Positions 56,201-64,000 of a DNA stretch of 64,000 nucleotides are shown here, piece after piece. How positions within the stretch are numbered: the stretch's first letter is position 1; each line of letters begins with the position of its first letter. The position numbers are program-made. The stretch comes from Escherichia coli. GTDB lineage: Bacteria > Pseudomonadota > Gammaproteobacteria > Enterobacterales > Enterobacteriaceae. Where the stretch lies: NCBI RefSeq assembly GCF_024502345.1, contig NZ_JALDNN010000001.1. One strand, given 5' to 3'.

Positions 56201-59200
56201 CCGGGGTTGAATGGCATACCGCATGTGGGCAAAAAAGCGGTACTGGTTATGTGTGCCGATCACGGCGTCTGGGAGGAAGGGGTCGCTATTTCTCCAAAAG
56301 AAGTGACAGCCATACAGGCTGAAAATATGACCCGTGGAACAACCGGCGTGTGTGTGCTGGCAGAACAAGCGGGCGCTAACGTCCACGTAATTGATGTTGG
56401 TATTGATACTGCTGAGCCTATCCCCGGGCTTATCAACATGCGTGTCGCACGAGGTAGCGGCAATATTGCTTCAGCTCCGGCAATGAGTCGCCGTCAGGCT
56501 GAAAAGTTGCTTTTGGACGTCATATGTTATACGCAGGAGCTGGCAAAAAACGGTGTCACGCTGTTTGGTGTAGGTGAACTGGGGATGGCAAACACGACAC
56601 CGGCAGCAGCAATAGTCAGCACAATCACTGGCCGGGATCCTGAAGAAGTGGTTGGGATTGGCGCAAACCTGCCGACAGATAAACTGGCTAATAAAATTGA
56701 TGTTGTGCGTCGGGCGATTACGTTGAATCAACCAAATCCTCAGGATGGTGTTGATGTCCTGGCAAAAGTGGGTGGATTTGATTTGGTCGGAATAGCTGGA
56801 GTGATGTTAGGTGCTGCTTCCTGCGGTTTACCCGTGTTGCTGGATGGATTTCTTTCTTATGCTGCTGCGCTCGCAGCCTGCCAGATGTCTCCTGCAATCA
56901 AACCGTATCTCATTCCTTCTCACTTGTCGGCAGAAAAAGGCGCGCGTATAGCGCTCTCGCATTTGGGGCTGGAGCCTTATCTCAATATGGAGATGCGTTT
57001 AGGTGAGGGGAGTGGCGCAGCTCTGGCGATGCCCATCATCGAAGCTGCCTGTGCGATATACAACAACATGGGCGAACTTGCTGCCAGTAATATTGTTCTA
57101 CCGGGGAATACGACTTCTGATTTGAACAGTTAAAAACGAAAAGTCTGATAAAAGCTATACTTAACGGATAGCTTTCGCGACATAGGAAAGGGACATGATG
57201 CGTCGTGTAAATATTCTTTGCTCATTTGCTCTGCTTTTTGCCAGCCATACTAGCCTGGCGGTAACTTATCCATTACCTCCAGAGGGTAGCCGTTTAGTGG
57301 GGCAGTCGTTTACTGTAACTGTTCCTGATCACAATACCCAGCCGCTGGAGACTTTTGCCGCACAATACGGGCAAGGGTTAAGTAACATGCTGGAAGCGAA
57401 CCCGGGCGCTGATGTTTTTTTGCCGAAGTCTGGCTCGCAACTCACCATTCCGCAGCAACTGATTTTGCCCGACACTGTTCGTAAAGGGATTGTTGTTAAC
57501 GTCGCTGAGATGCGTCTTTATTACTACCCACCAGACAGTAATACTGTGGAAGTCTTTCCTATTGGTATCGGCCAGGCTGGGCGAGAAACCCCGCGTAACT
57601 GGGTGACTACCGTTGAACGTAAACAAGAAGCTCCAACCTGGACGCCAACGCCGAACACTCGGCGCGAATATGCGAAACGAGGGGAGAGTTTGCCCGCATT
57701 TGTTCCTGCGGGCCCCGATAATCCCATGGGGCTGTACGCGATTTATATTGGCAGGTTGTATGCCATCCATGGTACCAATGCCAATTTTGGTATTGGGCTC
57801 CGGGTAAGTCAGGGCTGTATTCGTCTGCGCAATGACGATATCAAATATCTGTTTGATAATGTTCCTGTTGGGACGCGTGTGCAAATTATCGACCAGCCAG
57901 TAAAATACACCACTGAACCAGATGGCTCGAACTGGCTGGAAGTTCATGAGCCGTTGTCGCGCAATCGTGCAGAATATGAGTCTGACCGAAAAGTGCCATT
58001 GCCGGTAACCCCATCTTTGCGGGCGTTTATCAACGGGCAAGAAGTTGATGTAAATCGCGCAAATGCTGCGTTGCAACGTCGATCGGGAATGCCTGTGCAA
58101 ATTAGTTCTGGTTCAAGACAGATGTTTTAAGAGCGTTGGTAATTAGAAAGCAAAAAGCCTGCTAGAAAGCAGGCTTTTTTGAATTTGGCTCCTCTGACTG
58201 GACTCGAACCAGTGACATACGGATTAACAGTCCGCCGTTCTACCGACTGAACTACAGAGGAATCGTGTGAACGGGGCGCATATTAATGGCAGTGCATGGT
58301 GATGTCAAAGGGTGAAATGCATTTTTTTGTTTGTTTGCTGTCAATTTCAACAAAGTGGTGAGCTTTCAATCTTATTGGGTAATGAACCATCGTGGTGCAT
58401 ACCCTCCTTTTATAGGGCAGGGGAACGCGACAGCTGATTAAAGGAGCAAATGACGAATCTATCATAATCTCTTATTTGACAGTTGGTTAGCTTGTACATC
58501 AACACCAAAATAAAACTGGCAAGCATCTTGCAATCTGGTTGTAAGTAATGGCGGCACTTGGGCCGATTCTTAAAAACCGGAGGCAACATGAACTTCAGAC
58601 GCCTGAAATACTTCGTAAAAATTGTAGATATTGGTAGCCTGACCCAGGCTGCTGAAGTATTGCATATCGCACAACCAGCGCTCAGCCAGCAGGTTGCCAC
58701 ACTGGAAGGTGAGTTAAATCAACAACTTTTGATTCGCACAAAACGGGGCGTTACGCCAACAGACGCCGGAAAAATTCTCTATACCCATGCGCGGGCCATT
58801 TTACGTCAGTGTGAACAGGCCCAACTGGCGGTGCATAACGTTGGTCAGGCATTATCGGGGCAAGTCTCGATTGGCTTTGCACCAGGAACCGCTGCGTCAT
58901 CCATCACCATGCCCTTATTACAGGCGGTTCGCGCTGAATTTCCGGAGATCGTTATCTATCTTCATGAAAATAGTGGTGCAGTGCTTAACGAAAAATTGAT
59001 AAATTACCAACTCGATATGGCGGTGATTTATGAGCATTCCCCTGTGGCTGGTGTATCCAGTCAGGCTTTGCTGAAAGAAGATCTTTTTCTGGTAGGAACT
59101 CAAGATTGCCCGGGGCAAAGTGTTGATGTGAATGCTATTGCGCAAATGAACCTCTTTCTCCCCAGTGATTACAGTGCTATTAGACTTCGTGTTGATGAGG

Positions 59201-62200: not shown

Positions 62201-64000
62201 CGACTGGGCTGTGCGGGCCGTGCTGTTTTACTGGCGAATGGTTACTGGATGTTGGCTATGGAAATACCCTCGACCCGAGCCGCAAAAGTGTGAAAAAAAG
62301 CCAGTTGTGTCGGAATAAACGACAAAATGCAGATTATTTCAGCAAACGATTTCAAATTTAAAAAACAGGCTTTGACATTGTGGGTGGGCATCGCTAATAT
62401 TCGCCTCGTTCTCACGATTCCTCTGTAGTTCAGTCGGTAGAACGGCGGACTGTTAATCCGTATGTCACTGGTTCGAGTCCAGTCAGAGGAGCCAAATTTT
62501 AGTTTTGAGACATCTCTATGAGTCCCAAAACAGTTAAAAAATAAAAATTATTTTTACCCGGTTACCTTGTAAAAAAGTGACCGGTTTTTTTGATTTCTGT
62601 GTTTCGTGCGCTTAATCGAGTCTCACGCTTCAGTGAGCAAGTTGCCCCCCAACAGACATCACGATTCGCAAGGTCAAAAACTCTGTTCCATGAAGTACCG
62701 TACAAAGATAAAGAGAAAAATGCCTTATGCGGGATGTCGCTATCGCGTCTTTATCGGGAAACTATGCGTAATTGCCACTTTGCCTTCTGTAATCAGAAAA
62801 AGAAGAACTGGAATTTTAATAAATATTATTTCTCTGGGAACGGGGATTTTTTATAATCAATATGACGAGTTGAACATTATATTTTTTATAAGGGTTATAT
62901 GAGATTAAAGAAATCTGCCGTAAAGACAGATTTCTTTAAAATATAATTAGAGATTTGCGACGTTATGATAAACTTTTTGTACATCGTCGTCATCTTCAAG
63001 GGCATCAACAAGCCCTTCAAAGATTTCTAAATCTTCTGGGGAAAGCTCAACTTCAGATTGCGCAATCATTTCTAATTCTGTTGTTGAGAACTCAGTGATT
63101 CCAGCTGCTTTTAGAGCCGCGATTCCTTTATGAAGGTCAGTAGGTTCGGTATAAATAACAATGTTACCTTCTTCTTCAGTCACATCACGAACATCAACTT
63201 CAGCTTCAAGTAAAATTTCAAAAATATGGTCAGGGTCTGATCCTTTAAATACAATCACACCCGTATTGTCAAACATATAGCTGACAGAACCTGCCGCTCC
63301 GATATTGCCGCCTTTTTTATTGAAAATTGTGCGAACGTTAGCAATCGTACGGTTAACATTTGAAGTCAATGTCTCGGCGATAATCATTGAGCCATTAGGA
63401 CCAAAGCCTTCATAACGGCCCTGCACGAACGTTTCATCTCCGCCGCCTTTGGCTTTATCAATTGCTTTATCAATAACGTGCTTTGGAACTTGTGCCTGCT
63501 TTGCACGTTCAATAACGAATTTTAAAGATGTGTTTAATTCTGGATCGGGTTCACCTTGTTTAGCAGCAGCATAGATTTCTACACCGAATTTTGCATAAAT
63601 TTTAGACGTTGCACCGTCTTTAGCCGTTTTTTTAGCAACAATATTGGCCCATTTACGTCCCACTGGAATGATCTCCTCGAAAATTTATTTACATTACTGG
63701 TAAATCGTTAACATGTGTTAAATCAGCATATTATATCATAACAGGAAAAATCTCGTCTATTAGAAATAAAAATATTCTAAAGCCATAATCTTATATTTTG
63801 TTTTATAAAAACTAATGTTGTTGGCGGGATTTTTTATAATTATATTTTGAAAGCATACATGCTTTTAATATGCGGAAATCATTAAGACGATAATGAAACT
63901 CGCATCTGCCCAAGGAAGCAAACAGCCCGCGTTGATTGCAGGCTATTTGCCAGATGTCTTACTTAATCCTTCACATCTATTTCTGATGAGAAGGTTCAGA

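Follow-up and report, generated by a model that had tools for sequence, protein, structure and literature searches.

We found that the segment at positions 58186-62494 (4309 bp) of the window, by which we mean the whole 64-kb stretch of Escherichia coli DNA analysed here, is almost certainly the ordinary asnV-asnU-asnW tRNA cluster of the species, with all three sites empty and in the same unrearranged state as in K-12. The evidence comes from the identity and neighbourhood of the three tRNA genes, the absence of island hallmarks next to them, and comparisons with other E. coli genomes in which the same sites are occupied or rearranged.

Results

Identity and neighbourhood of the asn tRNA cluster

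Three tRNA genes were detected in the window by ARAGORN, all of them tRNA-Asn with the anticodon GTT at position 34, and the Rfam tRNA model (RF00005; gathering score 29) gave 72.6 bits for each. Alignment showed asnV, asnU and asnW to be identical over all 76 nt. A sequence-only reading had placed three identical 76-nt tRNA-Asn genes on the coordinates and strands given in Table 1, and ARAGORN, Rfam and alignment agree with it exactly. The identity of the copies continues a few bases into the flanks: the asnV/asnU pair forms a perfect direct repeat of 85 nt, the asnU/asnW pair a perfect inverted repeat of 84 nt, and the asnV/asnW pair an inverted repeat of 104 nt at 97% identity. The 22-nt 3' segment of the tRNA had no matches in shuffled sequence, meaning that the copies are not there by chance, and matches to the tRNA are present in 5424 of 5426 complete E. 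coli genomes. Other RNA families gave only sub-threshold Rfam scores (manA-II, 33 bits vs. a gathering score of 100; rnk leader, 30 vs. 55), which we attribute to chance.

Table 1 Features of the asn tRNA cluster and its surroundings, in window coordinates
Feature	Position	Strand	Remarks
cobU-cobS-cobT	54757-57133	+	
ldtA (erfK)	57195-58130	+	NCBIfam NF007563, 697.6 bits; LdtA equivalog; faces the 3' side of asnV
Predicted intrinsic terminator hairpin after asnV	58152-58179	-	Terminator scan; -18 kcal/mol, z-score -5.3
asnV, tRNA-Asn(GTT)	58186-58261	-	76 nt, CCA encoded; flanked by ldtA and nac as in K-12; ARAGORN, Rfam
Putative sigma-70-like promoter of asnV	58280-58308	-	TTGACA, 17 nt spacer, TAATAT; consensus scan, 10/12 matches
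nac	58588-59505	+	NCBIfam NF008410, 598 bits; LysR-family nitrogen assimilation regulator
cbl	59607-60557	+	NCBIfam NF009324, 684 bits; CysB-like regulator; its 3' end points towards the 3' side of asnU
Predicted intrinsic terminator hairpin after asnU	60559-60587	-	-19.5 kcal/mol, z-score -6.5
asnU, tRNA-Asn(GTT)	60595-60670	-	Identical to asnV; between cbl and yeeO; ARAGORN, Rfam
Putative sigma-70-like promoter of asnU	60687-60714	-	TTGACA, 16 nt spacer, TAAGAT
yeeO	60831-62318	+	NCBIfam NF007562, 906 bits; MATE-family efflux transporter; flanked by asnU and asnW, which are inverted relative to each other
Putative sigma-70-like promoter of asnW	62372-62400	+	TTGACA, 17 nt spacer, TAATAT
asnW, tRNA-Asn(GTT)	62419-62494	+	Identical, opposite orientation; between yeeO and yeeN; ARAGORN, Rfam
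Probable asnW terminator	62558-62591	+	Hairpin and T run, ~65-95 nt downstream of the tRNA
yeeN	62947-63663	-	NCBIfam NF009044 (subfamily), 352 bits; YebC/PmpR-family regulator; faces the 3' side of asnW

The surrounding genes also identify the locus. Among the window's ORFs, Nac, Cbl and YeeO are NCBIfam equivalog matches, as is LdtA, whose gene name is also the one given in the annotation of strain F11, and the gene order is the one annotated in F11. The 6.9 kb around the cluster belongs to the E. coli chromosome and has 99.8% identity to that strain. Of the 5426 complete genomes, 4754 are collinear with this 6.9-kb region across 80% or more of its length, meaning that the layout of the window is common to 88% of them. 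K-12 has the same genes, order, orientations and spacers (cobT-ldtA-asnV-nac-cbl-asnU-yeeO-asnW-yeeN), and it differs from the window in no structural respect, only by strain-level nucleotide differences of up to ~2%; the three junction queries matched K-12 genomes at 100% of their length and 98.0-99.9% identity. The labels “cobT-ldtA-asnV-nac” and “nac-cbl-asnU-yeeO” on a published K-12 map (PMC7648144) likewise agree with the window. A fourth copy, asnT, lies outside the window, past its end; in F11 it is found ~14 kb further on, adjoined by an integrase pseudogene. asnT is where the yersiniabactin High Pathogenicity Island (HPI) usually sits.

Every copy forms a gene by itself, probably served by a strong sigma-70 promoter and a terminator of its own, and jointly the copies would supply the cell's single tRNA-Asn species. 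In the alignment the upstream -35 box is conserved across all three copies in the window. The predicted terminator hairpins of asnV and asnU each sit between convergent genes (asnV and ldtA, and asnU and cbl, respectively). asnW is without the immediate hairpin found after the other two copies; the fold of the sequence past it (62495-62600) gives an 8-bp GC-rich stem followed by T7. Judging from their identity across genomes and from the consensus promoters and terminators, the tRNAs are probably expressed, aminoacylated and functional.

Absence of islands from the three sites

A genomic island that targets a tRNA gene enters at its 3' end and leaves two hallmarks, an integrase adjoining the gene and a duplicated 3' segment at the far boundary of the island. 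We found neither hallmark in the window, as the sequence-only reading had held. Past the three tRNA 3' ends there is only a spacer (55 bp after asnV, 37 bp after asnU and 452 bp after asnW) and then a core gene (ldtA, cbl and yeeN, respectively), again in line with that reading, and no tyrosine integrase lies directly downstream of any of them; for asnW the view extends 1.5 kb to the end of the window, all of it native yeeN flank. We also ran the search for partial repeats of the 3' end that the same reading had proposed. Across the whole 64 kb, with up to 3 mismatches allowed in 17 or 22 nt and up to 5 in 20 nt, only the three genes themselves were matched, with no extra copy of the 17-, 20- or 22-nt 3' end. 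Given the absence of an integrase and of a duplicated 3' end, together with the core genes adjoining each tRNA, we conclude that asnV, asnU and asnW are all unoccupied by islands in this strain. An island that had been present and was then precisely excised would leave no trace, and empty sites therefore do not allow the claim that they were never occupied.

The native junctions are also the usual ones in the species: ldtA-asnV-nac is contiguous in 4664 of the 5426 complete genomes, cbl-asnU-yeeO in 5177 and yeeO-asnW-yeeN in 4974, with K-12 among the genomes that have contiguous native junctions.

The search for hidden att remnants, in which the entire tRNA was run through blastn-short alongside the ungapped scan with 5 mismatches in 20, returned only a cluster of 9-10-nt matches at 53236-53279 with E-values of 3.4 or worse, which we judged to be chance. 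This cluster of short matches falls inside a degraded region upstream of cobU.

The flank beyond asnW has a mildly unusual composition. GC content is 43-55% over 54.6-62.6 kb and 33-40% from 62600 to the end of the window, a low-GC stretch that covers the asnW-yeeN spacer as well as yeeN. One explanation is that one of the three sites, most plausibly asnW with its AT-rich 452-bp spacer and low-GC neighbour, marks the eroded edge of an ancient island that has become fixed in E. coli. The drop in GC content would fit this, as would the missing immediate hairpin after asnW. However, low GC by itself is weak evidence, YeeN is a full-length YebC-family protein, and the 64-kb scans recovered neither a partial tRNA repeat nor an integrase remnant. 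Furthermore, the yeeN flank adjoins a tRNA-Asn (the asnW, asnV or asnU 5' side) in ~5273 of 5424 genomes, meaning that it behaves as core E. coli DNA. We thus consider an ancient island edge very unlikely, and treat the yeeN side of asnW as native.

The same sites occupied in other strains

Comparison with island-bearing strains, as the sequence-only reading had suggested, revealed occupied asn sites that were clearly unlike those of the window, with an integrase and/or a duplicated 3' end. In the pks-carrying strains O18 and HH45, clbS is followed by a P4-type tyrosine integrase that sits directly after a tRNA-Asn. Strain 1008S19 carries a conjugative-type (ICE-like) island with MobQ relaxase, TraD and PilV; its match to the window begins at 62471, revealing a 24-nt duplicated tRNA 3' end adjoining yeeN. 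Other integrase islands were found at the locus in KL53 and 2016C-3878. The earlier view of tRNA-Asn loci as insertion points for islands is thus borne out by the pks strains and 1008S19 as well as by published work, in which the pks (colibactin) island is inserted at asnW, asnU or asnV (PMC8209727, Auvray et al.; PMC8461471).

The known occupants, i.e., pks at asnW, asnV or asnU, the HPI at asnT, and islands of the ICEEc1/ICEKp type, all attach at the same tRNA-Asn genes, whose 3' end provides the att core. The identical 3' ends of the copies make them interchangeable attachment sites for P4-type tyrosine integrases (HPI, pks, ICEEc1-like). In contrast to these systems, the window has no integrase, island cargo or duplicated 3' segment at its three sites.

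Rearranged forms of the cluster among complete genomes

Identical tRNA copies could also serve as substrates for homologous recombination. The inverted pair asnV/asnW could flip the nac-cbl-yeeO block, the inverted pair asnU/asnW could flip yeeO alone, and the direct pair asnV/asnU could delete nac-cbl. To detect such events, we built chimeric junction sequences and used them as queries for the 5426 complete E. coli genomes. Where no rearrangement has taken place, an inversion query has its halves on opposite strands and a deletion query has them 2.4 kb apart; a full-length match therefore indicates a rearrangement.

The junction joining the 5' flank of nac to yeeN through tRNA-Asn (nac-Asn-yeeN), i.e., that of the inverted block, was found in 265 genomes, including CFT073, 536, Nissle 1917, ABU 83972, NU14 and ATCC 25922. 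The sequence-only reading had held that the opposed outer copies permit inversion of this block; this is true of the species, by these 265 genomes and by published reports, and the window itself is uninverted. It has the native ldtA-asnV-nac and yeeO-asnW-yeeN junctions, and the inverted junctions of the inversion isomer (the pks configuration 1A type) are absent from it, which places it in the common, majority orientation.

The reciprocal junction, ldtA-Asn-yeeO(-), was found in a single genome, SE15. The other 264 of the 265 lack it in contiguous form, and every one that we inspected or recognised carries pks and its integrase; in the two inspected (O18 and HH45), the pks island lies between ldtA and the tRNA. 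This pattern raises the possibility that the P4-type integrases of islands, acting on oppositely oriented att cores at the tRNA 3' ends, bring about the inversion, in which case the present strain, having no integrase at these three sites, would not invert. It is supported by the near-complete lack of contiguous reciprocal junctions, by the pks island and integrase at the ldtA-side position in both inspected genomes, by the suggestion of Auvray et al. (PMC8209727) that inversion accompanied pks insertion, and by KL53 and 2016C-3878, which combine rearrangements with integrase islands. KL53 has a compound form, in which yeeO is upright, nac-cbl is inverted and an integrase island is present. 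We looked at 2016C-3878 to characterise the class described below that joins ldtA to the yeeO 5' end, but its locus has several islands and too many rearrangements to be counted as a simple isomer.

Other rearrangements point the opposite way. Inversion of yeeO alone, by exchange between asnU and asnW, was detected in ~33 genomes through its two junctions (cbl-Asn-yeeO(-) in 32 genomes, and the yeeO 5' end joined through Asn to yeeN in 34). These genomes fall into at least 6 distinct levels of identity to the query, which suggests that the inversion arose several times. In one of them, PSJ-36, the inversion of yeeO alone is clean and none of asnV, asnU and asnW bears an island; its Nac, Cbl, YeeO and LdtA proteins are identical to those of F11. 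A third class, in which ldtA is joined through Asn to the yeeO 5' end (35 genomes), includes the clean deletion in AH20K059, where nac-cbl is lost between the direct copies asnV and asnU, as well as complex, island-bearing loci; loss of nac-cbl through asnV and asnU occurs in a few genomes. SE15 lacks pks but has the inverted block, and in it a further yeeO 3' fragment adjoins yeeN, meaning that its history was not a simple reciprocal exchange. Finally, inversion between asnW and asnV was detected and PCR-validated within cultures of UTI89, in control cells with no recombinase overexpressed (PMC6458436). All four cases speak against a need for island integrases, although an integrase linked to asnT (as in F11) could still have acted in each of them.

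Taking these observations together, we consider integrase action an unlikely general explanation; for the pks-linked inversion specifically, exchange at att cores is still a competing one. The rearrangements most likely arose by general (RecA-type) homologous recombination across the identical or near-identical repeats of 84-104 bp, a reading favoured by the island-free inversion in PSJ-36, the deletion in AH20K059 and the UTI89 result. Because each crossover falls inside identical DNA and is unreadable from the sequence, the mechanism is one that we infer. A bolder and rather doubtful proposal, which we put forward only tentatively, is that asnV, asnU and asnW together with the outside asnT act as a small multi-state recombination system. 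On this view the whole-block inversion, the yeeO-only inversion, the compound form and the loss of nac-cbl might keep arising, at low frequency, when strains such as the present one are cultured. Such forms might have biological consequences, e.g., if they fixed islands in position or altered the setting in which nac, cbl and yeeO are transcribed or replicated.

Relation to published work

The cluster is a normal part of the E. coli chromosome and has been described before. Both the inversion of the whole block and the use of the asn tRNAs as island integration sites are already published (PMC8209727, PMC8461471, PMC6458436). Auvray et al. (PMC8209727) gave the asnW-asnU-asnV region as 4309 bp, the same as the span in the window, and described inversion of the block; Wami et al. 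2021 (PMC8461471) reported the same inversion, as yeeO-tRNA(Asn)-cbl-gltC. The authors of PMC6458436 regarded the asnW/asnV inversion as possibly common and dynamic, and credited the inversion in CFT073 to Ou et al. 2006, a work that we cite only as it is reported there. In the published inversion the same asnV/asnW inverted pair flanks the same 4309-bp nac(gltC)-cbl-asnU-yeeO block as in the window, which differs from it in being uninverted, in the K-12 orientation. In our literature search neither the yeeO-only isomer nor the clean nac-cbl deletion turned up, and these are small additions to the published inversion.

Genome plasticity in E. coli has a well-known hot spot here: colibactin and yersiniabactin islands insert at these tRNAs, and the block has an orientation that is correlated with the configuration of pks. 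Current understanding of the asn cluster is unchanged by our findings, and for the window the useful result is a negative one, i.e., no island at asnV, asnU or asnW and the standard orientation. At the level of the species, the junction counts over the 5426 complete genomes provide an estimate of how frequently each site is disrupted or recombined.

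Rearrangements between tRNA-Asn copies in other E. coli genomes

Chimeric junction sequences, in which a tRNA-Asn gene joins two flanks, were searched against 5426 complete E. coli genomes, and recovered an inversion of yeeO alone, between asnU and asnW, in 32–34 of them. The genomes carrying this arrangement (e.g., PSJ-36; see table) fell into at least six distinct levels of identity to the junction query, and we found no published description of it. The larger nac-cbl-yeeO block is inverted in strain SE15, which lacks the colibactin (pks) island. Because SE15 also carries an extra 922-bp fragment of the yeeO 3' end, adjoining the tRNA that neighbours yeeN, its arrangement points to a duplication-inversion or recombination scar and not to a clean reciprocal inversion.

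Loss of nac-cbl was found between asnV and asnU, which are direct copies. In AH20K059 both genes and one tRNA-Asn are cleanly gone; in SL112 both tRNAs are kept, with a 150-bp cbl remnant alone left between them.

Features of the window and of the loci from other E. coli genomes (locus coordinates count within each locus)
Feature	Sequence	Coordinates
Inversion of yeeO alone (example)	PSJ-36 locus	5466-7365
Inverted nac-cbl-yeeO block	SE15 locus	7437-12889
Loss of nac-cbl and one tRNA-Asn	AH20K059 locus	5437-7336
Two tRNAs and the cbl remnant between them	SL112 locus	4437-4789
EutP/PduV-like remnant ORF	window	within 51300-54750
TonB-dependent receptor plug fragment, truncated	window	52552-53112

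Differences from strain F11 and composition of the flanks

The O-antigen gene cluster of the window (galF-gnd, approximately 20734-29389) gave no megablast match to the O25 cluster of F11, and the serotype of the window strain is therefore different from that of F11, its closest match at the asn locus. The two also differ between yeeZ and the his leader, where the window has ~216 bp (40822-41037) and F11 has ~660 bp holding the yefM-yoeB toxin-antitoxin genes; this module appears to be absent from the window or replaced.

The tmaR-cobU interval (51300-54750) is degraded, and homology with F11 identified transposase and cobalamin-gene remnants in it, alongside the two remnants listed in the table. 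F11 carries a further 5.4 kb that the window lacks, with cbtA/cbeA toxin-antitoxin genes and a DMT transporter among its contents, as well as an IS3 copy that is missing from the window. Three clustered 9–10-nt matches to tRNA-Asn (53236-53279), which lie upstream of the receptor fragment and beside a hairpin with perfect pairing, were rejected as chance (E-values of at least 3.4). In the window, cobU (54757-55302) is an intact 181-aa ORF, whereas the F11 annotation gives it as a pseudogene interrupted by a stop codon.

On the other side, GC content is 33–40% over the asnW-yeeN spacer and yeeN (62600-64000), compared with 43–55% in 54.6-62.6 kb. This flank carries no mobile-element signatures and is conserved across E. 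coli.
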